Shown piece after piece: positions 9,950 through 45,160 of a DNA stretch of 64,000 nucleotides. Positions within the stretch are counted from its first letter, which is position 1. Every line of letters starts with the position of its first letter. The stretch comes from Mobula birostris (taxonomy: Eukaryota): positions 21,814,439-21,878,438 of the forward strand of contig NC_092371.1 in the NCBI RefSeq assembly GCF_030028105.1. The letters are read 5' to 3'. The notes below the pieces were generated by a model, which did no database searches, was not told where the DNA came from, and saw only the letters and a list, made by a program, of their open reading frames with translations. Both the position numbers and the translations under genes were made by a program.

Positions 9950-10158
9950 TTCTTTTTTTTTGGATCTTCCCCTCCCCCTCCAACTTTCAAATCCCTTACT
10001 CACTCTTCCTTCAGTTAGTCCTGATGAAGGGTCTCGGCCTGAAACATCGACTGCACCTCTTCCTAGAGATGCTGCCTGGCCTGCTGCGTTCACCAGCAAC
10101 TTTGATGTGTGCTGCTTGAATTCCCAGCATCTGCAGAATTCCTGTTGTTTGCGTTAAA
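9950..10158 (+). mobile_element. Short Penelope-like terminal-repeat insertion
   Basis: 14-bp TSD ataacaaaaaactt (9936-9949 / 10159-10172). Homologous to the 3' end of 5588-7768. Confidence 0.9.
10017..10052 (+). ncRNA. Minimal type I hammerhead ribozyme motif
   Basis: agtc CTGATGA a gggt ctcg gcct GAAACATC gact: stem I agtc/gact, core CUGAUGA and GAAA, stem II hairpin. Confidence 0.75.
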
Positions 10159-10844
10159 ATAACAAAAAACTTGCCGGTTTACGATGTTAAAAGTCTGTTA
10201 TGTCACTTTTTTCGAGTTCTGTGCCTGAAGATCTTAAAGATCCCGGTCCTCCAGACACAGAGCAGATATTCCAACTCCCCCGACGACAAACAGGTCTCCT
10301 GTCGTGACACCGACCCTTGATCCGCCTGTCTCCAGAGCCCAAAATCCTAGGTTTCCAAATTCGAGCCAGATTCTTAAGCTGAGCCTTTGGCATGCCGAAC
10401 AATGGCCAGTTATGGAACACATTCTTGCAAAGAAGCGTAGTCAGCGTGTAACTCCAGGTCAAGGGCTTCAAAAGAACCCTGAAAGGGAAAAATAGGGATA
10501 TTAAAGATGGAAATAGAGCTGTTTCCAAAGATGCAAGCAAAGAGGTCGCCGTTAGGCACCATTAACCCTCCTAAGCTCCGTTTGGCTCCATTTCGCCGAT
10601 TAAAGCAATGAGGAAGATTGAAGCATTGAAGCGAGTACAGAAGGTAAGTGCCAGTTACATGCCTTTTGATTGGTTGTTTTGTACCGGAGAGGGCAGGGCC
10701 TGCTGCTGTGGAGATTGTTGTCCAGGTTTTTATCTGCATTTTGGATTTGGACTTCGGACTATAGACTCTTTTTTTCCGTCTTATAATTTTTATATTCTGT
10801 GTTTTATTCACTTGATCTTCACAGTTTTTTTTTCTGCATGAAAA

Positions 10845-11125
10845 GGGATTGTGGGTCAATATGCCTGATCCATTTTGTTTGTTTTTTGTGCGAGTGAAGG
10901 GATTTAGGGGTTGATATGCCTGGTCCATTTTGTTTGTTTTTTGTGCGAGTGAAGGGATTTAGGGGTTGATATGCCTGGTCCATTTTGTTTGTTTTTTGTG
11001 CAGGTGGAGGGATTTGGAGGTCGATATACCTGATCTGTTTTGTTCATTTTTTTGTGTGGGAGGATGGATTTGGAGGGATCGATGTGCCCGATCCAATTTG
11101 CTTGTTTTTTTTGCGTAGGAAGCAG
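10845..11125 (+). repeat. 55-bp minisatellite, about 5 units
   Basis: Unit atatgcctggtccattttgtttgttttttgtgcgagtgaagggatttaggggttg starts at 10859, 10914, 10969 and 11024, then a more diverged unit at ~11081. Confidence 0.9.
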
Positions 11126-11790
11126 GATTTGTTTTTTTTGCGGGGGGAGGAGGTGAGTTTTGGGCATTGATGATTATACTGCCTTTCTTTTCTTTCTTGG
11201 TTTTATGGCTACCCGGAAAATTGAAGAATTTCAGAGTTGTATACTTTGATAATAAATGAACCTTTGAATCTTTGGAAGATGCAACCATCGAAAGAACAGT
11301 ATGAAGGCAAGGCAGTCGATTATCTGCATCATGAGTCTGGGCTGATTTTGTTCACCTACAGTCATTCAAAAGAAAGTAGCAGCATACACTAGGTGAATTC
11401 CTCCATCAATAATTATTAGAGATCAATACACAGTTTTATGGAGCTGTAGTAGTACTGGTAGTGTCCTAACTTGTTCTGTATTTCACTTAAATACGTAAGT
11501 TGTTACTCAGTTAAATAGTAGTCTGCTTTTTTTTATACCTTTTCAATAATTTCTATGAAACTGCAGCTAATTTGGGCATCTATTTAATTAGACCAAAATG
11601 TAGTGGGTCCAATGTACTTCAATTAACCAAAATCCACCATATATATAGAAGTGTAAATGCAGTGCAAAAGACTTTTGAACTTCTTATTGTCGTATCATTA
11701 ATATAATCAGGAGTGTTAGAAGGTTTTTTAAACTATAGCACCGTTGTCATTTGTGTGCCACTGAAGTAAAACACCCATTCCATGTTTCAG

Positions 11791-11968
11791 GGAATTCCCA
11801 CCCAATTCAGCCCTGCATGAAGGACCAGATTGTGGCCCTTCCCCACAGAACCTTTGTATTTGCTTCGCCAAGCTTGAGTGCTCAGTCCAGCCGATCTTAC
11901 AGTACATATTCCTGCAACCAGGAATGTGCCAGTCCTACCTGTGACCAGATCCCTCATCCTCTTGAAAG
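11791..11968 (+). CDS. Candidate internal coding exon (NSHPIQPCMKDQIVALPHRTFVFASPSLSAQSSRSYSTYSCNQECASPTCDQIPHPLE)
   Basis: Acceptor ccattccatgtttcag| and consensus donor AAG|GTAAGT. Only one of the three frames is open. Unique-looking sequence between repeats. Confidence 0.5.
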
Positions 11969-12229
11969 GTAAGTACTTCTACAAACATAGAGTCCTTCAT
12001 TCCTGGAATGTGGCCTTATTGCAGAGAGATGAAAGAGCTCTACAGTATGTGTTCTTACCTTCACTGAGCTATTAAAAATTTATAGAGAAATGGTTTCAAT
12101 TGATCTGAATAAAGACTAGGCTGCCAAACTTTACTGAGTTATTCTTGATTCAGGCAAGAAATCTTTGGAAGCAGGAAGCTTTAAAGTCTCTTCACAACCT
12201 TGGTCCTAGCATGTCAAAGTTTCTGTATC

Positions 12230-15200
12230 ATTAGGATCTGTTCTGGGGAAGGTATGATCTATACAAAAAAGGACAGGTTACACCTGAACCTGAGGAGGAC
12301 CAATATCTATTTGGGCAGGTTTGCTAGACTTGTTTGGGAGGATTTAAACTAACTTGGCGGGGGCTGGGGTGGAAACCAGAGTGATAGGGTTGAGAATGGA
12401 GCAGTTGGTATTCAAGTCAATGCATTGTATAGTGAGACACGCAGATGATAGGGCAATATTGCAGTCAGTGGAATGAGTTGAAGTGTAACATATGGCTAAA
12501 ATTGAAAAGGGTGATGAACAGAGGACTGAAGGTATTATATTTGAATGCACACAGTATATGGAATATAAGACAGATGATCTTATATCACAGTCAGAGACTG
12601 GCAGGTATAACTTTGTAGGTATTACAGAGTCATGGCTGAAAGATGATCATAGTGAGAGCTTAACATCCAAGGATACGCATCGTATTGAAAGGACAGGCAG
12701 GCAGAGACAGTGGGGTGGCTATGTTGTCACAAAAATAATTAAGTGAAAACCTTAGAAAGAGGATTAGCAAATGAGAATACTTGTAGGTAGAGTTAAGAAC
12801 TGCAGGAGTAAAAAGACCCTGGTGGGAGTGAAATACAGGCTTCTGAACAGTAGCCAAGATGTCAGACATAAATTACAATGGGAGATAGGAAAGTCATGTT
12901 AAAAGGGCAATGTTATGATAGTCATTGGGGATTTCAATGTGCAGGTAGATTGTGAAAATCAGGTCGGATCTAAAGAGAGGGAATTCGTAAAATGCCTACA
13001 AGCTGGCTTTTTAGAGCAGCTTCTGGTTGAGCCCACTGGGGGATAAGCAATTCTGGTTTATGTGTTGTGCAATGAACCAGATGTGGTTAGGGTAAACAAA
13101 CCCTGAGGAGGCAGTGATACTATGTTAAAATTCATCCTGCAGTTTGAGAGGGAAAAGATAATGTCAGAAATATCAATATTACAGCAGAGTAAAGGGAATT
13201 GCAGAGGCATGAGAGAGGAGCTGGCCAAAGTTGATTGGAAGCGAACACTATTAGGGTTAAATTTCTGGGGGCATTCGGAAGGCACAGGATAGTTACATTT
13301 CAAAGATGAAGAAGTATTCTGAAGGGAGGATGTGGTGACCGTGGCTGACAAGGGAAGTTGAAGGCATATATAACAAGAGAGGACATATAATATAACAAAA
13401 ATTAATGGGAAGTTAGAGGATTAGGAAGCATTTAAAAACCAACGGAAGGCAATTAAAAAGACATAAGGAGAGAAAAGATAAACTATGAAGGTAAACTAGC
13501 CAAGAATATAAAAGAGTATACCTAAAGTTTATTCAGATATATGAAGAGTAAAAGAGAGGCAAGAGTGAATATCAGACCGCGGGAAAATGATGCTAGAGGG
13601 GTAGAGTATGCCGAAAATTCAAGAATGTAAGAGGCAAAAGTGAGTATAATCACTAATATGAAGGGAGAGGTCTTGGGAAGCTGAAAGCTAGATATCTACC
13701 TTCAGACTACACCCCAGGACCAGATGGACTACACCCCAAAAATCTGAAAGAGGTATCTGAAGAGATTGTGGAGGCGTTAGTAGTGATTTTTCGAGAATCA
13801 TTACATTCTGGAATTGTCCCAGAAGCCCGGAAGCTTGCGAATTTCACTCCACTCTTTAAGAAGGGAGGGAGGCAGAAGAAAAGAAATTATAGGCCAGTTA
13901 GCCCGACTTTACTGGTTAGAAAGATGTTGGTGTCTATTATTAAGGATGAGTTCTCAGGATGGTTGGAAGCACATGATAAATACGTCAAATTCAGCAGTGT
14001 TTCCTTAAGGGAAATTTTGCCTCACAAAATCTGTTGGAATTCTTTGAGGGAATAAAAAGCAGGATAGACAAAGGAGGGACAGTGGATGTTGTTTACTTGG
14101 ATTTTCAGTAGGTTTTGATAAGGTGGCATACATGAGACTACGAAGCAGGTTAAGTGCCCATGGTATTACAGGAAAGCTTCTGGCATGGATAAAGCAGTAG
14201 CTAATTGGCAGGAGACAAAGATTGGGAATAAAAGGGTCTTGAAGAGTGTGCAGTTACCACAACTAAAGAGAAGGTTCTTGGAAAACTGAAAGGTCTGAAG
14301 ATAAATAAGTCACCTGGACCAGATGGTCTACAGGGTACTGAAAGAGATGGGTGAAGAGATTCTGGAAGCATTAGAAATGAACATTCAAGAATCATTAGTA
14401 CTGGAATGGTTCTCGAAGACTGGACAATTGCAAATGTCACGCCACTCTTCAAGAAGGGAGAGAGGCCAAAGAATGGAAATTATAGGCCATTTAGTCTGAC
14501 TTCAGTGTTTGGGAAGATGTTGGAGTCAATTGTTAAGGATGTGGTTTTGGGTACTTGGAGGCACATGATAAAATAGGCTGTAGGCAGCATGTTTTCCTCA
14601 AGGGAAAATCTTGCCTGGCATATCTGTTGGAATTTTTTGAAGAAATAACAAATGGGATAGGCAAAGAAAAATTGGTGGATGTTGTGTACTTAGATTTTTA
14701 GAAGGCCTTTGACAAGGTGCCACACACGAGGCTGCTTAAAAGGTTAAGATCCCATAGTATTATAGGAAAGATATTAGCAATGTGTAGAAAATTGACTGAC
14801 TGGCAGGAGGCAGACTGTGAATATAGGGGGCTTATACAGGTTGGTTGCCAGTAAGTAGTGGTGTTCCACACGGTTTAGTATTGAGACCACATTTTCACAT
14901 TATATGTCAACAGTTTTGATGGAATTGATGGCTTTGTGGCCAAGTCTGCAGAAGATACAAAGATAGGTGAAGGGGTAAGTAGTGTTGAGGAAGCAGAGAG
15001 TCTGCAGAGGGACTTAGACAGATTGGGAGAATGGCCAAAGAAGAGGCAGATGGAATACAAAGTAGGGAAGTGGACTGTCATGCACTTTGGTAGAAGCAAT
15101 AAAGGCATAGACTATTTTCAAAACAAGGAGAAAATTCAAAAAACCAGAGCTGCAAAGAGACCTGGGAATCATTGTGCAGTATTCTCTGAAGGTTAACTTG

Positions 15201-16800: not shown

Positions 16801-16809
16801 ACAGCAGAA

Positions 16810-19085
16810 ATGACAGGCAATGGATATAGCATATGGATCAGCAGCTAGGTCCCTTATAAGGAAACTGGATGTGATTCAGGCTCAGGCTTTGAGAGTGTGC
16901 AGCGGGGCTTTTAAGTCATCACCAGTATCAGCCCTACAGGTAGAAATGGGAGTAATGCCTTTGGAACTAAGAAGGATGCAATTGATGGCAAACTACTGGG
17001 TTAATTTGCAGGGACACAATGTTTCTCACCCTGCAAAAGGAGTGTTGCAGGAGTGCTGGGAAAACGGGAAGTTTCAGAGGGATAACTTTAGACGGGTAGG
17101 GAATGATATTGCTAAAAAATGTAAACAAGAGGAATCCTGCAGATGCTGGAAATTCAAGCAACACACATCAAAGTTGCTGGTGAACACAGCAGGCCAGGCA
17201 GCGTCTCTAGGAAGAAGTACAGTCGATGTTTCAGGCCGAGACCCTTTGTCAGGACTAACTGAAGGAAGAGTTAGCAAGAGATTTGAAAGTGGGAGGGGAA
17301 GGGGGAGGTCCAAAATGATAGGAGAAGAGAGGAGGGGGAAGGATGGAGCCAAGAGCTGGACAAGTGATTGGCAAAGGGGATATGAGAGGATATTGGGACA
17401 GGAGGCCCAGGGAGAAGGAAAAAGGTGGGGGGGGGGAACCCAGAGGATGGGCAAGGGGTATAGTCAGAAGGACAAAGGGAGAAAAAGAAGAGAGAGAGAA
17501 AGAATGTGTGTATAAAAATAAATAACGGATGGGGTACAAGGGGGAGGTGGGGCATTAGCGGAAGTTAGAGAAGTCAATGTTCATGCCATCAGGTTGGAGG
17601 CTACCCAGACGGAATATAAGGTGTTGTTCCTCCAACTTGAGTGTGGCTTCATCTTTACAGTAGAGGAGGCCATGGATAGACATGTCAGAATGGGAATGGG
17701 ATGTGGAATTAAAATGTGTGGCCACTGGGAGATCCTGCTTTCTCTGGCGGACAGAGCATAGGTGTTCAGCAAAACAGTCTCCCAGTCTGTGTCGGGTCTC
17801 GCCAATATATAGAAGGCCACATTGGGAGCACCGGATGCAGTACTGAAGAATGTGGAGTGTTTGATCTAAGGATAAGTCCTTCAGTAGTTTATCCGGTTGT
17901 AGCTCCATGGAAGCTTGTATGGCCTGACATAGACTGGCATTGGTTAGAGGTAAAAAGGAAAGGAAAATATAAAATTGATTTAGTAAGTGCATTTAACTGT
18001 CATGTGATGGAAAAGTATAGTGATTATACTCAGATTTATACGGATGGTGCTAAGGAACCTGAAACAGGAGTGACAGGGTTTGGGGTGGCTATACGAGCAA
18101 AAGAAATTGGAATCAGCAGAAGGACATCTAATTAGTTAGGGGTGTATACAGTGGAGATGCTGGCAGTGTTGGTTGTGTTGCGATGGGTGGAGAAAGCTAG
18201 ACAAGTCAAAGTGTTGATATGCTCAGATTCATCCTCAGTTCTAGCAAGTTTAAGGTCTTTTCACTCAAACAGTCGGCAAGATGTACTTTATGAAGTCCTT
18301 CCGTCAGTCACAAGAATTGCAAATCAGGGAGGTCAGGTAAAATTTCTATGGGTTCCAGCACATGTAGGGGTGAAGGGGAATGACAGGGTGGATGAGTTGG
18401 CAAAGAGGGCGTTAAAGAAAGAAAATATAGAAATGCACATTAGTATCAGTAAAGCAGAGGTTAAGTGTGTAATCTGGGAAAAAATCAACCAAATGTGGCA
18501 AGAAAGGTGGGACAGGGAGGGGTAAGGGGGGTATTTATATCAAATACAAAAAAGTGTTGCCGGTATTAGGGTAGGTAGTGGATACAGAATAGTGGAAACT
18601 GTGTGGACTAGGTTAAGGCTGGGGCACTGTATGTAAAACAAAACATTGAAAATGATAGGGAAACACCAGACAGGATTGTGTGAGGAATGTCAGGAAGAGG
18701 AGTCAGTAGAACATGTAGTTCTGAGTTGCAGGAAGTATGGGATACAGAGAGAGATGATGAGAATTAATCTAAGGGAAATGGGGGTGCAGGAATTCACATT
18801 AAAACGGTTGCTGGGCATGGGTGAGAGAGCACAGTTCAGCGTATTTTTAGCTTTCTTAAGGGGTACAGGGGTTTTTTATAGGATATGATGGATAAGCGGG
18901 AATAGAGTACTAGGATGGCCAAAGATGGGAGGATAAAGTGTAGGTTAGGGTATGTGTGTGTATGTAATTGGGTGAAGGGATTTAGAATGTAAGTTTATTG
19001 CACACTCTGGAGCAGAAGGAGATGGTAATGCACCATTAAGCTGAGTGCCAACCGCTGTAAAACAAGACGGAGAAGAATAAGAAGA
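16810..19085 (+). mobile_element. I-group (Nimb-like) LINE 3' half: RT C-terminus, RNase H and CCHC knuckle
   Basis: IQAQALRVCSGAFKSSPVSALQVE. RNase H motifs IYTDGAK, VEMLAV, SDSSS and WVPAHVGVKGNDRVDELAK. CEECQEEESVEHVVLSC. (gaa)n-like tail near 19070-19085. Confidence 0.85.
17123..17842 (-). mobile_element. 5'-truncated Penelope-like element (GIY-YIG plus 3' repeat) inserted in the Nimb LINE
   Basis: YCIRCSQCGLLYIGETRHRLGDCFAEH. Degenerate TSD ctaaaaaatgt (17112-17122) / ctgaagaatgt (17843-17853). Hammerhead with a mutated core (CTGACAA) at 17221-17256. Confidence 0.9.
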
Positions 19086-19239
19086 CAGGCAATGGCCATC
19101 TAAGATGAGAGAGTCTAATAACATTCCCTTGATATTCAATGGAATAGTCATTGCTGATTAATCCACCAGACTTGGATAAGGATTCAAATAGACTAAGTAC
19201 TTAATGACTTACAAGAGCAGATCAGAGACTGGGTATAAC

Positions 19240-19570: not shown

Positions 19571-21068
19571 ACTTCAACATTTGTATTCTGTCATGAATCA
19601 CTATTTTTGGACACCCCAAGACCTATACATCTACAAGGCACAATCAGGAGTATGATAGGATATCTTCCACTAGCCTAAATGTGTGCAACTCTACCAGTTG
19701 TGAAGAAATTGACAGTACTCTTGAGGTACTCCACCAATCTCTCTGAACATTACCTGAGTCCAGCACAGGCACAGAGCTCCTGCAGTGCATAAACTCTGAA
19801 CACTACACTGCAGTTATAACCTGGCTATTGCAGCAGCACCCCCTGGTCAGGAAGGACAAGGACTTTAGTTGCTTGGAAACACTGCCACCTACTGGTCACC
19901 CTCCAAGTTGCATAGCATCCACACTTGGAAGTTTATTGCCAGTCCTTCATTTCACTGGGACTAAATCCTCGAATCGCCTCTCCAACAGCACAAGAAGGTG
20001 ACTCACTGCTACTTTTTCAAGGTCAATAGGAATGAGTTACAGATGTTGGCTTCATCGGTGATGAGCGGATGCTAAAAAGTTATTGAATTAAAAAGGGAAG
20101 TCTTGCAGAATGCAACACTCCCATCAGTACAGAAGTGAGATAGATGGACTGGTTGAAGAGTGTCACAACAGAGTGCATTCATCATCAGCAAGATCAATGA
20201 ACTGACTGCGGACTTCAGAAACGGGAAGTCAGAAGAACACACAGTAGTCGTCTTTGAAGTTTCAGTGAAAGAAAGGGTGCACAGAAGCTCCTTTACCTAT
20301 GCAATTAGGTAAAGTTGTTAATTTAAACCTATATCCTGTGATTAAGTATCCTTTACAAATTTGGCTCCAGTTCCGCAATTTTTTTAATCTTAAAAAATTT
20401 AAACGTTGTAGTTTAATTTATCGAAATTACTTTTTTAAGCCTTCTTTGAGAGATCCAATTTTTTTACTTTGGAAAAATAAAGGTATTAATTCTTTTTTGG
20501 ATTTATTTAAAGAAGATAGATTGATGTCCTTTGAACAATTAATTGATAAATATTCTCTTTCATACTCACACTTTCTGCAATACCTTCAAGTTAGATATTT
20601 TTTACAAAAATATTTAAGTAATTTCCCTTACATATTGGAGGCTGACCTGTTAGATACTATTATGAGTATGAATCCTTTGATTAAGGGTTCTATTGGAAGA
20701 ATTTATAATTTACTATTACAATGGGATAAGCGTCCTTTATCTAAGATGAAACAGGATTGGGAAAGGGAACTTAATTTGACTTTTATGACGGAGGATTGGA
20801 TGCGGATATTGAAGTTGGTTAACTCTTCTTCAATTTGTGCTAGCCATTCATTGATTCAATTTAAAATTGTACATTGTTATCATTTGACAAAGGAGAGAGT
20901 TTCTAAAATTTTTCCTAATGTTGATAGTCATTGTGATAGATGTAACACTGAGATAGCTACACTGACACATATGTTTTGGTCTTGTTCTATATTGGAACAG
21001 TTCTGGAAGTTGGTTTTCTCAGCAATTTCTAAAGCACTTAAAACTAATTTACAACCTAATAAATTAAC

Positions 21069-21527
21069 CGCAAACAACAGGAATTCTGCAGATGCTGTAA
21101 ATTCAAGCAACACACATCAAAGTTGCTGGTGAACGCAGCAGGCCAGGCAGCATCTCTAGGAAGAGGTGCAGTCGATGTTTCAGGCCGAGACCCTTCGTCA
21201 GCTCTAACTGAAGGAAGAGTGAGTAAGGGATTTGAAAGATGGAGGGGGAGGGGGAGATCCAAAATGATAGGAGAAGACAGGAGGGGGAGAGATGGAGCCA
21301 AGAGCTGGACAGGCGATTGGCAAAAGAGGATACGAGAGGATCATGGGACAGGAGGTCCGGGAAGAAAGACAAGGGGGGGGACCCAGAGGATGGGCAAGAG
21401 GTATATTCAGAGGGACAGAGGGAGAAAAAGGTCCTGACGAAGGGTGTCGGCCTGAAACGTCGACTGCACCTCTTCCTAGAGATGCTGCCTGGCCTGCTGC
21501 GTTCACCAGCAACTTTGATGTGTGTTG
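21069..21527. mobile_element. Penelope-like inverted-repeat insertion with two hammerhead motifs
   Basis: 13-bp TSD ctaataaattaac (21056-21068 / 21528-21540). Minus arm 21069-21430, plus arm 21430-21527. The L1 peptide NKLT is duplicated on both sides. Confidence 0.92.
21430..21465 (+). ncRNA. Minimal hammerhead ribozyme motif with intact core
   Basis: ggtc CTGACGA a gggt gtcg gcct GAAACGTC gact. Partner on the minus strand at 21170-21205. Confidence 0.75.
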
Positions 21528-24500
21528 CTAATAAATTAACTGTGCTTTTTGGAATAGTTCCTCAAAATATTCATGGTATTTCTGTGTCTGACCAACATGT
21601 TATTGCATTTGTTACATTGATAGCTAGGTGGGCCATTTTGTTGAAGTGGAAGGATACATCAGCTCCCACTTTGTCACAATGGTTCTCTCAAGTGATGCTA
21701 TGTCTTAGTTTGGAGAAAATTAGAAGTCGAACCTTTGAACCTTTATTTGATTTTGAGAAAAGATGGGGCTCATTTGCTCGTTATTATCATTTGTGTTAAT
21801 TGATATAATTTTTCCACAATCTAATTGTAAATTTTTTTTAGTATATTTTCTTTTCTTGCTGGCGGTTTGATGTTTATTTTTAGAAGCTTTTTGTATGACG
21901 CATGGCTCCGGGGTTGTACACCTAATGGGTTCTCCTTTTTTTTTCTCACTTTTCTGCTCAGTAGGTTTTTTTTGTTATCACGAAATTTTGTTTTCAATCT
22001 TTAAGATGATGGGTTTTTTTTGAGGCATTGTAAGTGTTGTTACTTCAATGTACTCATGTTATTTTTCCTATATATACAATAAAAAGATTTGAAAAGAAAG
22101 AAAAAAAGGGTGCACAGCTTCAAGTTCCAAGGTGTAAGCATCTTGGAAGTTCTATCCTGAGCCCAGCTCATTGATGCATTCACATAGAAGACATACTAGT
22201 TCCTCTACTTTGTTGAGAGCTTGAGGAGATTTGATATATTACCAAAGGCTCATACAAATTTCTAAATACGTGCAGTGGATAACATTCTAACTGATTGCAT
22301 CGCAGCCTGGTATGAAAGCTTCAATGCACAGGATCACAAGAGTCTGGGAAATGAACTCAGCCAGTTCCATCACTAGCACAACCTTCCCCACCATCGATGA
22401 CATCTTCAAGAGGCAATGACTCAAGATGACAGCATGCATCTCTAAGGACCCTCACCACCAAGATGTGCTCTCTTCTCATTACTACCATCAGAGAGAAGAT
22501 ACAGGAGATAGAAGACCCACACTCAATGATTCAGGAACAGCTTCTTCCTCTCAGCCATCAGATTTCTGAATGGTCCATAAACCCATGACACTACCACATT
22601 ATTCCTTTTCTCCCCCCACCATTTATTTAGTTTCTAATTTATAATAATTTCATATCTTTGTATTGCATTTCTACTGCCAAACAACAAATTTTATGCCATC
22701 TTAAGTTAGTGATAATATATGAGATTCTGATTATGGTTCTACACTACAGTGTCAGCTGAGATTCTGAGCTGAGATTTATATGTTTAGACTCAAACTTATA
22801 AATTGTTGACCCAGTGAAGTAAGTTCTGGCAGCTGACTTTAGACCAACATAACCATCTCTGCATTGTAGGATTGCCACCTAGAAAGTCATGGAGAGGAAA
22901 TTTAAACTGCAAGAATAAAAGGTAAAGAAAATGTAACTAAACTTTGGAAGGAATTTTGTCTGCAGGAGATGGGATCAGTCTCTTTCCTGATGGTAAATGA
23001 AGAGCAAGGTGGCCACCGGCCCGTGAGGCAGACATAAAGACAGCAGCTGAAGCTGTCACATCCATCTTGTTACAGCTCACCTCACTTGCTGCCAATTAAC
23101 CAATGACACAGTCATTATTTTTCTAACTAATTGGAGTTGCTCATAGAAGCAAGATTTTACACCCTTGGCAAGGCCTGTGGGAGAAGCATATTTGGAGGAC
23201 ATAAGTTTTCCACCTCACTACCGCACTACTATCTGTCACTGTAAAATAGCCACATGAATCTAAGCCAAACAGAGCTGTGAACAGGTTGGTAGATACCTTC
23301 ACCAGAACCCTGATATACAATGTCATATGCCAGCTAAGCATGGAGACTTCACTGATGAATCTTGCACTGTGTACACATTTTCCACTTTGTACTTAAAATG
23401 GACTTTTTTGTTCTAATTATATTTTCTTGCAAAACCTGTGTAGAATTTATGTTTAATTTACTTATCTGATTCGATGTGCCTTCGATGCTGCTGCAAGTAG
23501 GTTTTCCATTACACCTGTGTGTGCATGTATTTGAACTTGTAACGATACACTTGACTTTGACTTTGACTGAAGCTTCCCCTGACAACGTTTTCTTTCAAGG
23601 AAATAGGGGGGTAGATTCAACAGCTGTTTCCCATATTAGATTTTGCATTTCCTGGGCATTTCTATTTCATTTGTGGTGTGTGCCTATACCGTAACAAAAA
23701 ACAGCCTTCGGTGTTTTTTTTCCAAATAATCTTGAGAGCAACCTGGACACCCAGCAGGAGCTGTGAGGGAACTCTTTTATCCAAAGCCAGTAAAGCTGGT
23801 GAAGCAGCAGCTCATGCTGGCATGGGTCAGCACAGCCTTTTAGGATCATTTCTTTTTATTCTGCTTCTCCAAAACTGCTATTGGGAGAGTCCATAAATCC
23901 ACTCTGGGAAGATGGCCAGTTACCAGCAGAAGATGCCAACTTTCTACTGAGGTGACCTGTTTTACAATGTGAATTAGCGCTCAAATAGAAAAGCAAACGT
24001 TAGCTATAGATTTGCATGTTCACACTGAGTCTCAGAGGTTTGTGAATTCACCTGCCACCTACACCATGCCAGCATCCAATCTAGGTCAAGGTGCCAGTGA
24101 AACCTCAGTTGTATTCTTTCTGAAATTAGATTTCTCAAAGGGGGTACAGAAGTGAGTGAGCTTTGCATCATTCTAGCTAATGTTCATTACTCAGTCAACA
24201 TCCAAAAGAAGATTAATGGATCGCAAGTCGAAATTCTGTTTGTGCAAAATCCCGCAGTCTTCTTTCCCACAATACAGCAGCAAAAACGGAAGATGGGATG
24301 ATCTTCGGGAAGTGCTGCTGAATTGAAGGTTGGTGTGCATGTGTGAGTTGCTTTTTCCTTTCAGTGATCAATAATAACAAGGTCTCAAAAGATAACTTTG
24401 AGATCCAAAGACATGGGTGGAGTACGTAAATAGATAAGAGATAGAATTTTAAAGCAATAGGAAGTTTTTGCAGAGCTCTCCAGAGGTCACATACTTTGAA

Positions 24501-29199: not shown

Positions 29200-30630
29200 A
29201 TGGGAGGCTGAGGAGCATTTCTACAAGATTGCTTCCATTGGGTAGACTGGGCAGTGTTCAAGGACTCATTAGAGGATCTGAACGCAATCACCATAGTTGT
29301 CATGGACTATATAAATCAATTGTAGAGGAATGTGTCCCCAAAAATGTCATTCAGAGTCATCCCTAACTAGAAGTGATGGATGAACCACGAGATCCACCAT
29401 CTGCTAAGCGCCAAATCAGTGGCATTCAGGTCTGGTGAACTATCTCATGTGCGAAGTGACAATTCCAGGCCAAGCTTGAATCACTGACCATAAGTCAGAG
29501 AAAATCTGTAGATACTGTAAACCGAAGCAACACACACAAATGCTGGAGAAATCAGCAGGCCAGGCAGCATCAATGGAAAAGAGTATACAGTCAATATTTC
29601 GGGCCTGGACTCTTCATCATTAGTTCTTCCTGCCTAGCCTGCCGAGTTCCTCCAGTATTTTGTGTACGATGCTTGACGGATGCTCAAGGACTATGACAGG
29701 CCCTACAAAGTGAAATCAAGTGACACAGATGAAAACAATGCTTCACTCCCAGATGAGCTCAATGCCATTCGTGTTCGCTTTGACTATCAAAACATGGAGG
29801 TACTTTCACCAGTACCCACAGCCCTCGACGACACCGTGATTTCAGTATTTGAGGTTGACATGAGAGCATCCTTCAGGAGGATAAGGCCACAGAAAGCATT
29901 CAGCCCTCATGGCATACCTGGTCAAATGTGTTGAGAGGTTGGTGATGAAACGTATAAACTCCTACCTGAGAATCAACTTGAATCCACTCCAATTTGCCTT
30001 CCGTCTCAACAGCCCAATAGCAGATAGCATTTCATTGGCTCTTGACTCAATCCTGGAACATCTGAACAGTGAAGATGCATACATCAGGATGCTTTTTATT
30101 GACAACAGCTCAGCATTCAATACTATAATCCCTTCAAAATGAATCAATAAAATACAATTTAACTATGTGTTCAATGACATCTTTACATTTGCCAGTGACA
30201 CCTGTCGTTGGCCAAATTAAAGGTGGTGAAGAATCAGCAAATAAGAAGGAGATTGAAAACCTTGCTGAATGGTACCACATCAACCTCTCACTCAATGTCA
30301 GCAAGACCATCGAGATGATTATTGACTTCACAAGGAGGTAACCAAAGATACAAGAACCAGTCCTCATTGAGGGATCAGAGCTGGAGAAGGTCAGCAATTT
30401 TAAATTTCTCGGTATTATCATTTCAGAAAATCTGTTCTGGGTCCAACACAAAAGAACAGGAGCTTCTCTTCGTTCTTAGAATTTTTCAAAGATTTGGCAT
30501 GTCATCTAAAACTTTGACAAACTTCTATAGATAACTTCTATAGATATGTGGTGCAGAGTATATTGACTGATTGCATCCCTGGCCTGGTATGGGTATAGAA
30601 AAGCCTACAAACATTAATGAATACAATGGA
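29200..30630 (+). mobile_element. Degenerate Rex1/Babar-like LINE with a Penelope-like remnant at ~29495-29670
   Basis: SLPDELNAIRVRFD, LNPLQFAFR..S.ADSI and YIRMLFIDNSSAFNTIIP. Degenerate minus-strand hammerhead at 29589-29620. Confidence 0.8.
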
Positions 30631-30979
30631 ATGACAAGCTGGATTCATCTGCAGATAGCTGAGAACTGCTTGTTCTTGCCATTAACACCCGTGCACCATC
30701 AATTTAGAGGACATGAAGCTCCAAGGCTTGGACTACATATAACCATATAACCGTATAACAGTTACAGCACCGAAACAGGCCATCTCGGCCCTTCTAGTCC
30801 GTATATGTGTGTGTGTGTATCTGTATGTTTTAATGGTCTTTTATTTGTGCTATAGATGCCTTGTACTATATACTGTGTTTTGTGCCTTGGGCCCAGAGGA
30901 ATGCTGTTTCATTTAGCTGTATTCATGAGTATTTATGTATGGTTGAATGATAATTAAACTTGAACTTAAACTTAAATCC

Positions 30980-32260
30980 TTCTCCAAAGACAGGGTTTCC
31001 CTTCTTCCACCATTGACTCTGCCCTCAGCCACATCTCCTCCATTCCATGGACATCCACGATCATGATCCTGCTGCCTTAACAGGGATAGAGGTCCTCTTG
31101 TTACCACCTACCATCCCATGAGCCTCTGCATCCTGTGCATTATTCTCCACAAATTCTTTCATATTCAATGGGACCCTAACACCAAACCCAACTTTACCTT
31201 CTACCCCTCCTCCACTTGCTGCAGGGATCACTCCTTCTGTGATTCCCTTGTACACCTGTCCCTCTCAGATAATCTCCCTCTTGCACTTATCCCTGCAAAT
31301 AGCAGAAGTGCTACACCTGCCCATTTGCCTCCTCCCTCACCTCCATTTTGGGCCTCAAACAGCCGTTCCAGATGAGGCAACACTTTACCTGTGAATCTGT
31401 TGGGATCATCTATTGTATCCAGTACACCTGATGCAGCCTCTTTTACATTGGTGAGATCCAATGTAGATTGTGGGATCACATTGTTGAGCAACACTGCTCC
31501 ATCTGCAAAAGTGGAATTTCCTGGTTGTCACTTCAATTTCTATCTCCATTCCTATTCTGACATGACGGTCCATTGTCTTCTCCTCTGCCAAAATAAGGCC
31601 ACTCTTAGACTGGAGGAGCAACACCTCATATTCCATATAGATAGCTACCAATGTGACAGTAGCTCCAACTTCCAGTACCTTTTTTATGCCTTCCCCTTCC
31701 CTCTTCTTCATTTTCTCACTCTGGCCTCTGCCCTCTACTCATCACCTGCCTATGAACTCCCCTGGTGTCCTTCCACCATCCTTTTTTTTCATGGTCCACT
31801 CTCCTGTCCTATCAGATTCCTTCTTCCCCAGCCCTTTGCCATTCCACCTAACACCTCCCAGCTTCTTACTTCATTACCCCTCCCTCAATTGCTTGGCTTC
31901 ACCCATCACTTTGTAGCTTGGGCTTCACCCATCACCTCATCTTCTTATTCAGGCATCTTTTCCCTTCCTTTCCATTCCTGATGAAGGGTCTCAGCCCGAA
32001 ACATCGACTGTTTATTCATTTTCATAGATGCTGCTTGACCTACTGAATTCCTCCTCCATTTTGTATGTGTCATGAAATTTGTTGTTTTGTGGCAGCAGTA
32101 CATTCCAAAACATATGAAGTTATTGTAGTCTTGATGAAGGGTGTCAGCCTGAAATATCAACTGTTTATTCGTCATAGATGCTGCCTGATATGCTGACTTC
32201 CTCCAAAATTTTGTATGTGTTGCTCAAGATTTCCAGATCTGCAGAATTTCTTGTATTTAT
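30980..32260 (+). mobile_element. Older Penelope-like element 3' part with two tandem hammerhead-bearing termini
   Basis: DRGPLVTTYHP and LRLEEQHLIFHI are homologous to 6740-7360. Hammerhead-like motifs at 31974-32009 and 32127-32162. Confidence 0.8.
31974..32009 (+). ncRNA. Minimal hammerhead ribozyme motif
   Basis: attc CTGATGA a gggt ctca gccc GAAACATC gact. Confidence 0.65.
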
Positions 32261-36430: not shown

Positions 36431-37641
36431 TGTCTCTGTCAGAGAGGACACAAAGATGTTGATCAAGGCTCCAGAAATTTCTTCTCTTGTCTCTTTCAAT
36501 AACTTGGGTTATATCTCATCAGACCCCAGGGGACTTACTCACCTTAATGCTCTTTAAGAGACCCAACACTACCTCCTCCTTCACCCCGAAATGCTCTAGC
36601 CTATCAATACGCTCAGCACTGATCTCCCTATCCTCCACATTCTCCTCATTCTTGTCCTTGGTAAATACTGAGGTAAAGTACTCATTGAGTGTTCTTATCC
36701 TCTCCCTACTCATCCTCTTGCCTTGGGATTCACCGAAGATTTTTCATGGCATCTCCTGATTTTCCTAATTCCCTTCTTGAGTTCTTTTTTGGATTCTTTA
36801 TAATCCCCAAGGTCTCGGTTTGATTCTGGCTTGCTGAGTTTTACATATTTTTCCTTTTTCTTTCTTGACTAAATTCATCACCTCACTTGACATCCAAGAT
36901 TCTCTTGTCTTGCGATCCTTGTCCTTCTTTCTGACCGGAATATACTTCTCCTGTACTCTGTGCAGTTGGTCTTTAAATGTCTTCCACCTGTCAGATGTGG
37001 ACTTGGACAAAATACAGCAGTTTCCAATTAACTCTCGTTAGTTCCTTCCTAACGCTCTAGTAATTTGCCTGCTCCAACTTAACACTTTCCTGCAAGGCCC
37101 ACTTAACACTTTCCTGCAAGGCCCATGCTTATCCTTATCTCTCACTATCTTAAAGCTTAAGGAGTTGTGGTCACTGTTCCCTATTTGTTCACGCAGTGAA
37201 AGGTCAGTCAGCTGGCCAAGCTCATTACACAACACCAAGTTCCCTTCCTCTTGTTGACTATTTAAATATTCACCTAAGAAACCCTCCAGGAGGCACCTAA
37301 AAAGTTCTGCCCCATCTAACCTCTTGAACTCAGAAGATGCTGAAAATCCCTATCTATATTAGGGAGGTTGAAGTCACCACGGCAATAACCCTGTTGTTTT
37401 TACACCTTTCCTTAATCTGTCTACATATCTGTTCCTCAATGTCCCAGTCGTTACTGGGGTGGAGGGGGGATGTCTGTAGTACAATCCCCTCAGAGTGGTT
37501 GCATCTTTCCTATTTCTAATTTCTGTACCTTCTTTATATTTTCTAAAACATTGAAACCCTAGCATATTAAGCACCCAAGCAACACACCTCAAATTTGCTG
37601 GTGAACGCAGCAGGCCAGGCAGCATCTCTAGGAAGAGGTAC

Positions 37642-37677
37642 AGTCGACATTTCGGGCCGAGACCCTTCGTCAGGACT
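37642..37677 (-). ncRNA. Minimal hammerhead ribozyme motif
   Basis: Reverse complement: agtc CTGACGA a gggt ctcg gccc GAAATGTC gact. Confidence 0.75.
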
Positions 37678-37697
37678 AACTCCTGCTTCCATCAGTT

Positions 37698-37733
37698 CGT
37701 CCTGATGAAGGGTCTCGGCCCGAAACATCGACT
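37698..37733 (+). ncRNA. Minimal hammerhead ribozyme motif
   Basis: cgtc CTGATGA a gggt ctcg gccc GAAACATC gact. Confidence 0.72.
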
Positions 37734-40029
37734 GTACCTCTTCCTAGAGATGCTGCCTGGCCTGCTGCGTTCACCAGCAAATTTGAGGTGTGTTGCTTGA
37801 ATTTCCAGCATCTGCAGAATTCCTTGTGTTTACAATATTAAGCACCCATTCCTGTCCCCTTCTCAACCAAGTTTCTGTAATGGCCACAACATTCATAATT
37901 CCATGTGCTAACCCATGCTCTAAATTCATCACCTTTACCCACAACACTCATAGCATTAAAATACACACACTTCAAACTATCCATCCATTGTATCAATTAC
38001 TTTGCTTCTGCCTGTTTTTTACTGACCCTGATATCTACCTTCCTCTGCATCCCTCCACTTTCTGACCTGGTTCTCTGGTTCCCATCCTCTTGTGGTTGCC
38101 AAGTGAGCTTAAACCCTCCTGAGGAGCACTAGCGAACCTCCCGGCCAGGTTATGGGTTCCCCTCCAGTTCAGGGACAACCTGTCCCCTTGTGTTGGTCAT
38201 CCCTGCTCCAGGAGAGATTCCATTCAGCCAAGAACCTGATACCCTGCCCCTGCACCAGTTCCACAGCCATTCATTCATCTGTGCTATCGTCCTCTTTCTG
38301 CCCTGACTGACGCGTTGCACTGGGAGTAATCTGGGGATCACTATTTTAGGGGTCCTGCCCTTCAGCCTCTTTCATAGCTCCTTATACTCACTATGCAGGA
38401 CTTCTTCTCCCTTTCTACCAATGTCATTGGTGCCAAAATGCAGCTCGACCTTTGGCTGCTCACCCTTCCTCTTGAGAATATTCTGCAACTGCTCTGACAC
38501 ATCCTGGGCCCCGGCACCGAGGAAGCAACACCCCATCCTGGCTTATCTTTCGCCATCATGGAATCTTCTGCCAGACCCCCTAACTGCCAAGTCTACTATC
38601 ACTATTGCTCTGCCTGACGTCAGCCTTCCCTGCTGAGCCTCGCCATTTTGCTGATGTAAATGCAAGCCAGATTAAAAAGGGTGATAGATGAACTGGTGTT
38701 CAGCTTACTGTTGCAAGAGGCTATACTTGGCTTCGTGCTGAACTGACTCTGCAGCCGTGGGGCTCATGGGCCAGCTGCACTTGCTTCAGTGCTGAAATGG
38801 CTCTGTGGCTGAGGCATTCATTTTCCGGGACTCTGCATTTTGCATTTGGTTGCTATTTTGAAATTGTTCGCATGACTTGTTCTTTTTTTGCACATTGAAT
38901 GTTTGATGGTGTTTGTTGTGTGGATTTCTCTGCGGATTCTATTATATTTCTTTGGTTTCTTGCTGTCTGCCAGCAGATGAATCTTAATGCTGCATTTGGT
39001 ATACATAATTTGATAATAAAAGTATTTGAACTTTTCATTTTGAAGTGCTTTTGCCTCAAGCACAGTGAATCTCTGAGAAGGAAAAAAGTTTAAAGCAAAT
39101 TTATTATCAAAGTACTTAAGTATATTGTATGCTAGCAGATACTATCTTTAAATTCATTTCCTAACAGGTATTTACAGGCAAAAAAGAAATACAATACAAT
39201 TTCATGAAAAGTATATATATATATATAAACAAGACTGACAAACTACCAACGTGCAAAAGAAGACAAACTGTGCAAATAATAAAAAATCCGAACAAGAGTT
39301 GTAAAGGTTCCTTGAAAATGAGTCTGCAGGTCATAGAATCAGTTCAGAAAAGCAGTGATTAAAGTTATCCACACTGGTTCAGGAGTCTGATGCTATAGGT
39401 TAATAACTGATCCTGACCCTGGTGGTGTGGGACCTACAGCTTCCACACCTCCTGTCCAATGGTAGTAGCAAGAAGGTAGAGATCTTTGAGGATGGTTGCT
39501 GCTATCGTGTGGCAGCACTCCATGTAGAAGTACTCAGTGGTGGAAAGAGCTTTGCCTGTGATAGGCACTTTTTATAGCTTTTTCCATTCTGTGTATTGGT
39601 GTTTCCATACCAGGCTGTGGTGCAACCGGTCCAGATACTCTCCACTGTGCCTCTACAGAAGTTTGTCAAACACACTGACATTGCCTATTTGCTCCACCTC
39701 ACGTCTTTCCTTACACAATATTACGACAACCTGCAATCATAAAATGATACCTCCTCAAAAATGCACAGCATAAAAGAGAAACTAAGCTCATATTTTGTTG
39801 TGATATTTTAAACAAAGCCCATATAATTGATGACGGGTCATGAACCTAAAACATTTATTGTTTCTCTTTCCATGGATGCTGCCCGACCTGTCAAGCTTTT
39901 GACACCATTTCCTGCTTTTATTTCAAATCTTCAATACTGTCAGTGCTTTTGATTTTCAAAGCTTGTACTGTTCGCTCTAGCTGATCCTATACATTTTGGT
40001 AAAGTGTCAGCAATCGATATACAGTAAAT

Positions 40030-40460: not shown

Positions 40461-40592
40461 GAGAGACCTTCTTCAGCGTTTGACTGTCACCAAGTTACAT
40501 TGGGATTATTCCAATGAGGAAAGGAAGATGCAATAGTATTTCCAATGGAATTAGGAATAGATTTCTTTCCAAGATAGCACTCTAAAATATAT

Positions 40593-40746
40593 ACACGAGG
40601 AAATCTGCAGATGCTGGAATTTCAAGCAACACACATAAGAGTTGCTGGTGAACGCAGCAGGCCAGGCAGCATCTCTAGGAAGAGGTACAGTTGACGTTTC
40701 GGGCCGAGACCCTTTGTCAGTTCACCAGCAACTTTTATATGTGTTG
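40593..40746 (-). mobile_element. 154-bp Penelope-like micro-insertion with a short inverted arm
   Basis: 13-bp TSD ctctaaaatatat (40580-40592 / 40747-40759). The minus arm stops exactly at the hammerhead CTGA core (40720), followed by a 26-bp inverted arm. Confidence 0.9.
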
Positions 40747-43700
40747 CTCTAAAATATATGCTGTGTTAGAGCAATTTACAAACAGAAGAAGCTAGATTTT
40801 CCTTATATGTACAAACTTCCCTTTGGCACCAATTCTGTTCAAAGATGCTAAGGATTTCTTTCCCTAACGGACGACCACTGCTTCACACGGGAAACACTCA
40901 GTCTTGTGGAAAATGACTGGCTCAGACCTGTACATCATCTTGACCATATCCCACCCTGTGTATGCACAGTTCAATGCAACATTCATCAATTCTGACCTAT
41001 CTCTTGTGAATTGACTATCCAGGATCAGGATTGTGACTGGGATGTGCCTTAGGATGATCTTCCACTTTATTGTCTGCCTACACTGCACTTTTTCTGTAGC
41101 TGTTACATTTTATTCTGCAGTCTGTTATTGTTTTACTTTGTTCTACCACCGTACACTGTAAAATAATTTGAGGAATATGAACAATGTGCAAGATAAGCTT
41201 TTCACTGCATCTCGGTACACACCATAGTGATAAACCGATCCCAATTCTAGTTCCAATTCCAATTGAGCTCTTTCTGTTTATCACTGAATTATTTAGTTCA
41301 ATGTCATGACTAATAATCTTCACCTTGGAACTGCAGTCACATGACATCTACTGGATTATTCATGGGCTGGAGGCTGTCATAGCAGGGGCTCCAGTTCCCT
41401 TTGTCCGCACCGTTCAAGAAAATTAAAGTACGGGTACTTCAAAATTCAGAACTAAAAAATAAACCAAAACGGTGAAACAATTCCTCCATGGCTTGGTCTG
41501 AGATTCTGAAGTGACTCACGTATCATTCAGCTGCTGAAGAAATGATGAACATTAGTATTTGCATCCATTCATTACACCAGGCAGACTGCCATTTCCAAGC
41601 GCTTGCTTTCATTACACCCTCACCACTCTAGGAAGTGATGGGTTGTATAATCCGAATGGTTTAATGGCCAAGGGGATTTAAAATGCTTCTCAGCTTCGTC
41701 ATCTGCTGAAGTTAATTGATTTCTTTTTGCATCCATTTATTTTCCTTTGTCACACAAATGCAGCCATTGGATTTATGCTTCATGTCACATTACAAGTCGT
41801 AAGTTACAGCCACTTCTTAAATCTTCAAATTAGATTCTTGTTCTGCAGTGAATTATATGAATTACATGAGTTCCTGCAACAGTTTGTTTTCTTGGGGTTA
41901 GGAGCATTGGTAGAACGAAAGAAATGGAGTCCAGATCCAAGGTTTCAAAGCTGTCTGATTGAAAGGGGAATGTCAATTGAAATTGCTGCGTCTATCAGTG
42001 ATTAGAAGGAAGCACATAGGAAACATACAGACTGCACCAGAGGTCAGAATCGAACAAACATCACTGGAACTGAGGAAGCAGTTCCACTGTTGTGCCTCTG
42101 TGCCATCCATTATTTTTGAGTATCTGCGATATTTTGTATCTCACTCTCCAACAAGCCATGAAATCTTTACAAATACAGCTCTCCTTTCATTCCAACAGCA
42201 TCTCAGTTTCACTCTATCTCATTCATCTGGTGACGTCCTGCACTTTGATTTTTATCCTTCCCTGAGGCTTCTGATTTAAAAGTTGCATTAAAATTATTGT
42301 CAGTGCGATAGCTCCCACATAATTGTTGCTGGAGTGAATGAAAAATGTCTGTAGCATTAACAGGAGTAATCAGGAAAAGTAACTCATTTCTTTCCAATGT
42401 AAGCAAAATACTCTAGTTTAAGTGGTTGCATCTGAGATTGCTGGAGGTTATGCTGATGGGTGATAATGCAACTTGTGTGTTGACCCCTTCAATCATACGG
42501 TTTCAGGGGAAGGGGGAGTGGTCGTAAACAGTTCACACATAACACAGAACAGTACATCACAGTAACAAGCACTTCTGTCTACTGAACATCATCTGCCAAA
42601 CACAGCACCAAATCAAACTATAGGTCACTCCTGCCTGCACACAACCCATTCTCTCCATTCTCTGCATGTTCACGCATCTATTTAAGAGTCTCTTAACCAC
42701 TTGTACCTGCTTCCAACAAACCTAGGCAGCCCATTCCTACCACTCTCGGTGAACAAAGTTTGCACATTTATGCAAAGAAAATGCATTTCAGGATGTATAT
42801 TGTATATATTTCTCTGACATTAAATTAAACCTTGAAACCTTAAATTGAACCTTTGAATATATAAATTTGCCAGTGACACGACTGTTGTTGGACGAATCAC
42901 AACTGGTGACGAATCAGTGTACAGGAGCGAGGTGGTTGACTGGTGCCACAACAACAACCTCTCACTCAGTGCCAGTAAAGCTAAAGAATTGATTGTTGAG
43001 TTCAGGAAGGCGAAGTAGAGAGAACATGTCTTGTTCCACATTGGGTGACCGGCAGTCGAGTGAGTCACAGCAGATATAAATTCCTGAGTGTTAACATATT
43101 AGATAGCATGTCCTGGGTCCAGCACTATCACAAAATGGCACCAGAAGGCATGTCACTGAACACTCAAGTTCAGATTTATTTATCACACGTACATCGAAAC
43201 AAACAGTGAAAGGAGTCATTTGTGTTACCAACCATCACAGCTAGGGGAGTCCTGAAGTGTTTCCACGCATTCTGATGCCAGAACAGCATGCTCACAATGC
43301 TTGGCAAAACAACACAGAGCGTAACAAGCCACAAAACAACAGCGAAGCAAGCCCCATTCCTCTCTCTCTCCCACCTACACACATGGACTGTCCTCCAACT
43401 CCAGAACAGGCCTCCAGTGTCCACTATCCGAGCTTCAGCCACTGGGCTTCGACTTCCAGACTTCCAGTCAACCTTCAGTACTGAACCAGGCTAGCTGATG
43501 ACAGCACCTCAAACTCACGGCTCAAACTCTGGGCATGCCGACTGACCGGCCCTCGTGCCTCTTGCTCACGTTCAATCCTGGAACACCCTGACGTGGGAGA
43601 GTCTGACATCCACGAATGTCCTTTATCCCTGTCCACATTGTCAGCCTCTGAGCATGTAGTAAAAAGTGTGACTCTGAAAGTCCTTCATCCCATGTTCACA

Positions 43701-43809
43701 TTTCTAGCCCTTGAGGACAGAGTAGAGGCCTGGACTCCGGATGTAATTTGTCACTCGTCCACACTTCTGGCCGTTGAACGTGGAGTGCAGAGTGGAGGAC
43801 TAACCTTTA

Positions 43810-45160
43810 ACCAATATCAAAGTGGATAATAAAAGCTTTTGCAAGTATGTAAAAAAAAATAGAGAGATGAGTTACAGTCGACGTTTCCAGCCGAAACCCT
43901 TCGTTGGGACTAACTGAAAGAAGAGCTAGTAAGAATTTTGAAAGTGGGAGGGGGAGGGGGAGATCTGAAATGATAGGAGAAGACAGGAGGGGGAGGGATG
44001 GAGCCAGAGCTGGACAGGTGATTGGCAAAAGGGATATGAGAGGATCATGGGACAGGAGGCCTAGGGAGAACGAAAGGGGGAGGGGGAAGCCCAGAGGATG
44101 GGCAAGGGGTATAGTGAGAGGGACAGAGGGAGAAAAAGGAGAGAGAGAAAAAGAATGTGTGTATATAAATACATAAATAACAGATGGGGTTCTTGGCTCC
44201 ATCCCTCCCCTTCCTGTCTTCTCCTATCATTTCGGATCTCCCCCTCACCCTCCCACTATCAAATATCTTACTAGCTCATCTTTCAGTTAGTCCTGACGAA
44301 GGGTCTCGGCCCAAAACGTCGACTGTACCTCTTCCTAGAGATGCTGCCTGGCCTGCTGTGTTCACCAGCAACTTTTATGTGTGTTGCTTGAAATTCCAGC
44401 ATCTGCAGATTTCCTCGTGTTTGCGTTTTTAAAGAGAGATGAGAGTGGATGTAGGATCAGTAGAAAGTAAGGCCAGAGAAATAATAATGGGTGACAAGGA
44501 GATGGCAAGATTAACTGAGTATTTTGCACCAGTCTTCACTGTGCAAGGCATTAGCAGTGTGCCAGATGTTGATGGGTGTGAGGGAAGAAAAGTGAGTTCA
44601 TTTACTAATAGAAGGGAGAAGCTGCTCAAGACCTGAAGGACCTCAGGGTACATAATTCACCTGGACTAGATGAACTGAACCCTAAGGTTCTGAAAGAGGT
44701 AGCAGCAGGGATTGTGGAATCATTAGTAATGATCTTTTAAGAATTGTTGGACTCCGGAATGGTGCCGCAGGACTGGAAAAGTGACATATGACATAGGAAA
44801 GAAAGGAGGAAAGTAGCAGAAAGGAAATTATAGACCAGTTAGCCTGACCTCAGTGCTTGGGAAGATGTTGGAGTTAATTGTTAAGGATGAGGTTATGGAG
44901 TATTTGGTGACACAGGACAAGATAGGACAAAGTCTGCATGGTTTCCTTAAGGGAAAATCTTGCCTGACAAACCTGTTGAAATTCTTTGAGGAGATTACAA
45001 GTAGGATAGATGAAGGAGGTGCAGGGGACGTTTGGACTTTCAGAAGGCCTTTGACAAGGTGCTACACATGAGGCTGTTTACCAAGTTAAGAGCCCATGGT
45101 ATTACAGGAATGTTACTAACATGGTTAGAGCATTGGCTGATTGGTAGGAGGCAGTGAGAA
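43810..45160 (+). mobile_element. CR1 ORF2 fragment interrupted by a Penelope-like insertion
   Basis: EMARLTEYFAPVFT, GNYRPVSLTS.LGKMLE and HGFLKGKSCLTNLLKFFEEIT. Confidence 0.85.
43872..44432. mobile_element. Penelope-like inverted-repeat insertion with two mutated hammerhead motifs
   Basis: 11-bp TSD agagagatgag (43861-43871 / 44433-44443). Motifs at 43876-43911 (-) and 44289-44324 (+). Confidence 0.88.

Follow-up and report, generated by a model that had tools for sequence, protein, structure and literature searches.

A type I minimal hammerhead motif in the terminal repeats of an abundant Penelope-like retroelement of Mobula birostris

The motif and its carrier in a 64-kb window

We analyzed a 64,000-nucleotide (nt) stretch of the Mobula birostris genome (contig NC_092371.1, positions 21,814,439 to 21,878,438 of the forward strand; hereafter the window), in which an initial annotation, made from the letters alone, had described 12 copies of a 36-nt hammerhead ribozyme motif and had attributed them to Penelope-like elements. 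The motif lies within the terminal repeat (pLTR) of a Penelope-like retroelement that is abundant in this genome and has a linker of Neptune type; its copies in the window are relics of insertions in the course of decay. The explanation that best accounts for the whole, and which is very probably correct, is that a type I minimal hammerhead is carried in a Penelope-like pLTR and that the relics were likely made from uncut RNA.

A fuzzy search with the 36-nt consensus recovered 12 motifs in the window and none in 10 order-3 Markov shuffles of it. All agree in coordinate and strand with those first annotated, with one starting at 21429 in our search owing to an edge base, and the two broken versions are also present (7648, with its 3′ half deleted, and ~39826, heavily decayed). 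The claim that every hammerhead core element is there holds for the family pattern and fails for single copies: scored position by position, 0/12 have the exact pattern, the catalytic core is intact in 6/12 and the ACGT palindrome in 4/12, and only the copy at 21430(+) keeps core, palindrome, and both stems. The Rfam hammerhead families, suggested as a check, gave no match in the window at the gathering score. Positions relative to the motif are numbered from the first base of stem I (0), with the predicted cut between +31 and +32.

The assertion of a Penelope-like carrier was borne out. At 20/20 element loci, hand-picked for long open frames out of 150 scored, the motif lies downstream of an open reading frame (ORF) for a reverse transcriptase (RT) and a GIY-YIG nuclease, at a distance of 280–299 nt from the stop in the 12 loci whose frame reaches it. 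Three of the 20 (L034, L039, and L047) have a second motif 3.5–3.7 kb upstream, in a 5′ pLTR that is 96.7–97.6% like its 3′ counterpart, and two of the 20 have an inverted one. The ORF of L047, L039, and L040 also contains, in its 5′ part and within the proline/serine-rich region, a 208–212-bp tandem duplication (91–95% alike; positions 3990–4410 in L047).

The open frame P0001 (locus L036, 1038 residues) contains RT motifs and GIY-YIG; it is a predicted protein only, and ahead of the linker its frame is locally shifted. Its Pfam matches are weak, both falling below the Pfam cut-offs (RVT_1, E 3.5e-5; GIY-YIG, E 0.03), and a search of solved structures gave no match at E ≤ 0.1. Pfam left the Penelope remnant unflagged among the first 20 window ORFs, and it was recognized through its motifs and homologs. 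Relatives of P0001 numbered 405 at E ≤ 1e-20 among 7,999 scored, and among named proteins the closest come from Chiloscyllium punctatum (72% and 67% identical; other listed matches ≤54%), which fits the earlier guess of a probably chondrichthyan genome. The linker of P0001 reads CKRNKCYTC, and of the 104 proteins in which a GIY-YIG could be recognized (121 examined), 101 have a CX2-5CxxC linker ahead of it. As this linker is the mark of Neptune and Nematis (PMC8557442), the element would, by the linker alone, be placed in one of these clades. The EN+ Neptune and Nematis elements have in common with ours one ORF with RT, linker, and GIY-YIG in that order, pLTRs, a 30–40-bp tail, and inverted 5′ copies (PMC8557442); the EN+ Penelope-like traits found here are pLTRs, a tail, inverted 5′ copies, target-site duplications, and a single ORF with RT and C-terminal GIY-YIG.

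The longest window copy (5588..7769, + strand) is 87% identical to the natural full-length copy L047 and matches residues 493–1037 of P0001 by tblastn. It consists of a short inverted 5′ piece (5588–5709) and a 5′-truncated body (5712–7769) in which a frameshifted RT and thumb are followed by the CX4CxxC linker, GIY-YIG (ending at a stop near 7365), 3′ untranslated region (UTR), the broken hammerhead (7648..7682, + strand), and tail. Other copies on the + strand are a solo pLTR fragment with a tail and a 14-bp target-site duplication (9958..10152), in which the hammerhead (10017–10052) has an intact core and has lost its palindrome (ACAT); a copy of an older subfamily (30977..32070) with remnants of linker and GIY-YIG, the 3′ UTR, and a hammerhead (31974–32009) with core intact and palindrome lost; an old solo copy (32126..32251) that begins at the hammerhead 5′ edge (motif 32127–32162, C3 to T); and the heavily decayed old copy, read from the sequence with approximate limits (39826..39900). 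The − strand carries a 5′-truncated copy (17117..17842) with the end of GIY-YIG, 3′ UTR, hammerhead (17221–17256, G8 to A), and tail, and an old short copy with a tail (29499..29624), preceded by a short inverted piece and with its hammerhead (29589–29624) broken by the loss of C3.

The remaining copies are head-to-head pairs that occupy both strands. At 21068..21529, flanked by a 10-bp target-site duplication, the tailed arm is on the − strand (hammerhead 21170–21205, stem I damaged) and the tail-less + arm begins at motif +1; the latter holds the one motif of the window (21430..21465) in which the catalytic core and both stems survive together with the ACGT palindrome. The pair at 37576..37831 (14-bp duplication) has a tail-less − arm from −4 (motif 37642–37677) and a tailed + arm from −12 (motif 37698–37733), while that at 40594..40748 (~12-bp duplication) joins a tailed − arm from +4 (motif 40689–40724, G8 to A) to a 29-bp tail-less + arm. 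In the pair at 43866..44428, the − arm has a motif (43876–43911) with a broken core and lacks its 3′ part after +45, and the tailed + arm has one with G12 changed to A (44289–44324). In all, target-site duplications border four window insertions.

Conservation, folding, and abundance of the motif

Judged from its sequence, the motif belongs to the type I minimal hammerheads, a kind already published for Penelope-like pLTRs in 2014 (Cervera and De la Pena, 2014, PMC4209133). Its fit to the minimal consensus of that study extends to the CG palindrome and to the additional base that follows A9, and it has in common with the metazoan examples CUGANGA with one base added, a G10.1 that opens stem II, GAAA, the palindrome without loop 3, UH, a short stem I, a place in both pLTRs, and an occurrence mostly as solo copies across the genome; it differs from them in having its own stems (AGUC/GACU and a 4-bp stem II). 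Among 47 young copies the extra A between A9 and G10.1 is present in 46 and the CG palindrome 15.2–16.2 in 43. We also examined 40 of 80 metagenome loci with distant relatives of the element, 27 of which reach the ORF end with at least 150 nt beyond. In 9/27 a minimal hammerhead, likewise with the extra base and the CG palindrome without a helix III loop, lies 83–194 nt past the ORF (shuffled loci, 0). At two metagenome loci of relatives (L167 and L196) the repeat that bears the hammerhead is also present as an inverted 5′ copy.

When these nine motifs were aligned with two from M. birostris, the core was invariant and the stems changed: 93% of stem cells pair, 6/8 pairs change on both sides, and covariation is 0.86, compared with 0.26 in shuffled alignments and ≤0.16 when slid (0/500 shuffles reach the score). 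These pairing and covariation values are somewhat inflated, as the relatives were chosen by a descriptor that demands pairing and the sequences are related. The initial annotation had made its claim depend on better conservation of the core than of the flanks, and the claim withstood this comparison across lineages, with the core invariant while the stems covary.

Several observations weigh against the identification. The pair 10.1–11.1 is G-C in the older subfamilies and in 10/11 aligned motifs but G-U in 41/47 copies of the young subfamily; G-U at this pair also occurs in the published hammerhead alignment (PMC4209133). There is no motif within 500 nt of the ORF end in 18/27 distant relatives. 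Lastly, the monomer predicted by ViennaRNA is a 36-nt rod in which the core GACG pairs with CGUC (~−12 kcal/mol), and the best dimer that the program finds (~−32) differs from the hammerhead dimer, which evaluates to −9.5. Because these minima are a rod and a non-hammerhead dimer, the active fold would not be favored without help, and cleavage is predicted only as a dimer or with the help of protein. The inactive predicted fold fits the reports that dimers of minimal hammerheads are weakly active (PMC4209133) and that the anole Poseidon ribozyme requires protein to cleave (PMC11167929). Downstream of the motif a long stem-loop is predicted (~+50 to +128 as folded on L047; window 10068–10140 and others), which spans the shorter of the two 3′ ends described below and may be a structure for protein binding or for the start of reverse transcription.

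The very high genome-wide copy number that was first predicted was confirmed by blind sampling. In 38 stretches of 10 kb (380 kb) there were 39 motifs, which scales to ~410,000 genome-wide (95% range 293,000–563,000); the window is denser than average, and scaling it alone would give 750,000. One version of the motif, 34 nt long, has 6,161 exact matches across the genome, a 23-nt downstream flank has 138,750, and a 36-nt flank of the young subfamily has 10,083 (reversed controls, 0 in each case). For the RT piece of the 5712–7769 copy, a first look at the 4.0-Gb genome gave 32,828 candidates. Contrary to the impression left by the initial annotation, most copies are decayed: the core is kept in 13/39 blind-sample motifs, and 3/39 (~8%) are fully intact. 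The 47 young copies in register are better preserved (38 fully intact, 41 with the core), with variation of 4–5% at CpG positions of the motif and 0.9% at other core positions. At least four subfamilies have the motif in common and differ in their flanks, a comparison that was partly anchored on the motif and is thus partly circular.

The kind of motif being known, what is new is the host group and the very large number of copies. Published counts of ~4,000 in coelacanth and ~9,000 in Xenopus were obtained by a stricter method and are not like for like with our ~410,000 recognizable motifs (PMC4209133), and in the supplement file of that study that we searched there was no match for shark, Callorhinchus, or Leucoraja. 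In our literature search, which covered mostly non-subscription papers, we came across neither this family nor the 5′ hot spot reported below. Some tens of thousands of intact motifs (from 3/39 sampled, with a wide range) could cut host transcripts if paired in trans.

Ends of young insertions

The main set of young insertions comprised 100 exact matches to an anchor wholly downstream of +42, at the loci of the first 100 listed places. Their 5′ ends cluster at the 5′ edge of the hammerhead, with 42/96 at-risk copies ending at −6 to +13 (15.1 times background, binomial p 5e-26). By contrast, 0/98 end at the predicted cut (+32) and 1/98 within +30 to +34. For the 100 copies, the other 5′ ends are divided into 4 at +14 to +41, 0 at −7 to −14, 5 at −15 to −24, and the remainder further upstream. 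The 3′ ends are bimodal, with 47 at +88 to +108, 51 at +129 to +144, none between +111 and +125, and 2 longer; the two ends are 35 nt apart and correspond to the absence or presence of a 35-nt tail. An earlier set of 82 young copies (from 139 alignments, with identity ≥88%, reaching to +70, and not at a locus edge), which overlaps the main set in a few loci, likewise has two 3′ ends and the 5′ cluster.

Three further possibilities were considered and set aside. Against an artefact of the reference, 54 copies align onward through the upstream UTR, and the short copies are bordered by target duplications or inverted arms. Stalling at stem II was rejected as the cause of the hot spot, given only 4/100 ends at +14 to +41, and a cap-derived extra G at the 5′ junctions found no support, as the G at +1 is templated or common to the flank.

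Loci with an inverted arm have exactly one tailed and one tail-less arm in 26/26 cases, and the two arms end within 20 nt of each other in 18/26 (both hand counts). Head-to-head pairs go undetected if their arms are long. Of the 62 copies for which no partner was detected, 31 are tail-less, this form being as common as the tailed one, and 21/38 of those tested have target-site duplications of 7–15 bp. Two of the loci, L314 and L319 (near 23.59 and 24.80 Mb of the contig G000:C1), are three-part inserts with a tandem 202-nt unit that runs from the hammerhead into the beginning of the ORF; their two close same-strand motifs could form a dimer in cis.

A close published comparison is the Poseidon element PAc of Anolis carolinensis (Frangieh et al., 2024, PMC11167929), in which the hammerhead lies at the junction of pLTR and ORF, upstream of a pair of fixed 3′ ends between which a tail lies, and in which there is also no sign of ends at the cut site. 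Its protein nicks and extends both strands, starting at two internal sites that bound the tail, and its ribozyme mutants still insert, making hammerhead cleavage dispensable in vitro (PMC11167929). PAc differs in belonging to the Poseidon clade and in having an ORF that starts inside the hammerhead, whereas our element has an open frame that starts downstream of the motif; the available text does not describe a 5′-end hot spot at the ribozyme edge. The Penelope elements of Drosophila virilis (PMC2377424) and Adineta vaga (PMC3846280) also have a pLTR made by a partial tandem, a 34-bp or 31-bp tail that is optional on one inverted pLTR, and an initiator-like sequence in the pLTR; for these the one-tail rule was given in words, and it is counted here (26/26).

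How the copies may have been made

The role of the hammerhead in Penelope-like elements is an open question (PMC8557442, PMC11167929), for which this family offers a test in vivo that can be counted. If they hold genome-wide, ends at the ribozyme 5′ edge, none at the cut site, and one tail per pair would constrain the mechanism of transposition. We tentatively propose, at somewhat short of even confidence, that the RNA starts at the first base of the hammerhead, stays uncut, and is primed at both internal sites by two target nicks. That the transcript starts in the upstream pLTR at TTAGTCC/TCAGTT, the hammerhead 5′ edge, is a suggestion for which we see the arguments as about evenly balanced; this sequence resembles the initiator consensus. 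The element protein would then nick both target strands, and reverse transcription would start inside the RNA at ~+99 or ~+134, a feature carried over from the anole element. A start in the 5′ pLTR of the RNA would give mini-copies of 100–135 bp that begin at the hammerhead, and one in the 3′ pLTR longer, 5′-truncated copies; use of both start sites together, one per target strand, would give a head-to-head pair with one tail. The 5′ hot spot would be the end of the template, and any self-cleavage after GUC would fall outside or after template copying. If each pLTR of the RNA holds one pair of start sites, roughly half of the copies would be expected to end at the hot spot, and 42/96 do. Cut RNA would give copies starting at +32, and their absence (0/98) points to uncut RNA as the template. 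If this is correct, a twice-primed uncut RNA would account for the tail, for the head-to-head repeats, and for the great number of 100–135-bp mini-copies, hundreds of thousands of insertions in the genome would be a record of the Penelope mechanism, and the ribozyme would stand outside the making of the template.

Three points should be set against this proposal. The main set represents one subfamily in the first 25 Mb of one contig. Among the 26 pairs, L314 and L319 are possibly one event and three partner arms are partly aligned. Finally, a start at the motif would differ from the situation in D. virilis Penelope, where an intron with its end at helix I has the promoter and the start upstream of it (PMC2377424, PMC4209133).

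An alternative that we consider rather unlikely, although it accounts for part of the data, is that the hot spot is structural: the complementary DNA (cDNA) copy of the 36-nt rod would fold, release the enzyme, and perhaps prime a fold-back strand to give head-to-head pairs. The predicted rod spans exactly 0 to +35, the ends spread from +13 to −6, where its 5′ arm gets copied, the nearness of the arm ends in 18/26 pairs would follow, and self-priming has been proposed for such junctions (PMC3846280). Plain fold-back, however, predicts pairs with two tails or none, which is the case in 0/26, and fold-back at the rod predicts a second arm from near +36, a start that few pairs show. Nor does it accommodate tail-less copies without a partner, which match the tailed ones in number (31/62).

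Routine cleavage in transposition, by which the hammerhead would cut a tandem precursor into unit-length, perhaps circular, templates, was proposed in 2014 (PMC4209133) and appears improbable for this family. Cut RNA would retain both start sites and should leave starts at +32, which the count of 0/98 bounds at ~3%, and the anole element could do without cleavage in vitro (PMC11167929). Yet the preservation of core and stems in distant lineages implies that something selects for them, the ORF lies between two motifs in L034, L039, and L047, and the 5′-end counts are compatible with circular templates.

It is less probable still that an intron ends at the hammerhead 5′ edge and that splicing intermediates set the cDNA stop. 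Such an intron is proven in the 5′ UTR of D. virilis Penelope (PMC2377424), a difference from our element, and ends there at helix I (PMC4209133). In M. birostris the stretch just ahead of the motif resembles a 3′ splice site, with a TACTAAC/CTCAC like a branch point, a pyrimidine tract, and AG (window 9993–10018 and other copies), and the 5 ends at −15 to −24 are above background, as was noticed after the fact. No copy, however, has a common upstream exon, the flanks being target duplications or inverted arms, and GT..AG ends were found in 0 of the 15 joints listed of 50 from four public contig sets in which the repeat is present.

A separate non-autonomous retrozyme or short interspersed element family spreading as tandem arrays is largely refuted here and very remote: most copies are short, two loci have the tandem 202-nt unit, and retrozymes are reported in one chondrichthyan (bioRxiv 10.64898/2026.07.22.740005), but no tandem array covers any window motif, the 202-nt tandem junction occurs exactly twice in the genome, and the short copies vary in their 5′ ends while longer ones continue into the element's own UTR and ORF. 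The animal non-LTR retrozymes of that report are also short hammerhead-bearing sequences derived from pLTRs, and differ in forming tandem arrays, in contrast to the dispersed solo or head-to-head fragments of M. birostris.

Among 105 open frames of the window, no host-gene domain was found at the Pfam cut-off, a scan that short exons would escape. The window also contains other retroelement remnants at 46582–47499, 57571–57954, 29885–30139, and 20269–21132 (RVT_1 matches and one weak zf-RVT match), related pieces of which recur at 12–15 kb and 44–59 kb, as well as fragments of a Pao-type retrotransposon peptidase and RNase H at 50587–50985 and 18136–18525. A 55-bp tandem repeat is present in 4.7 copies at 10853–11115.

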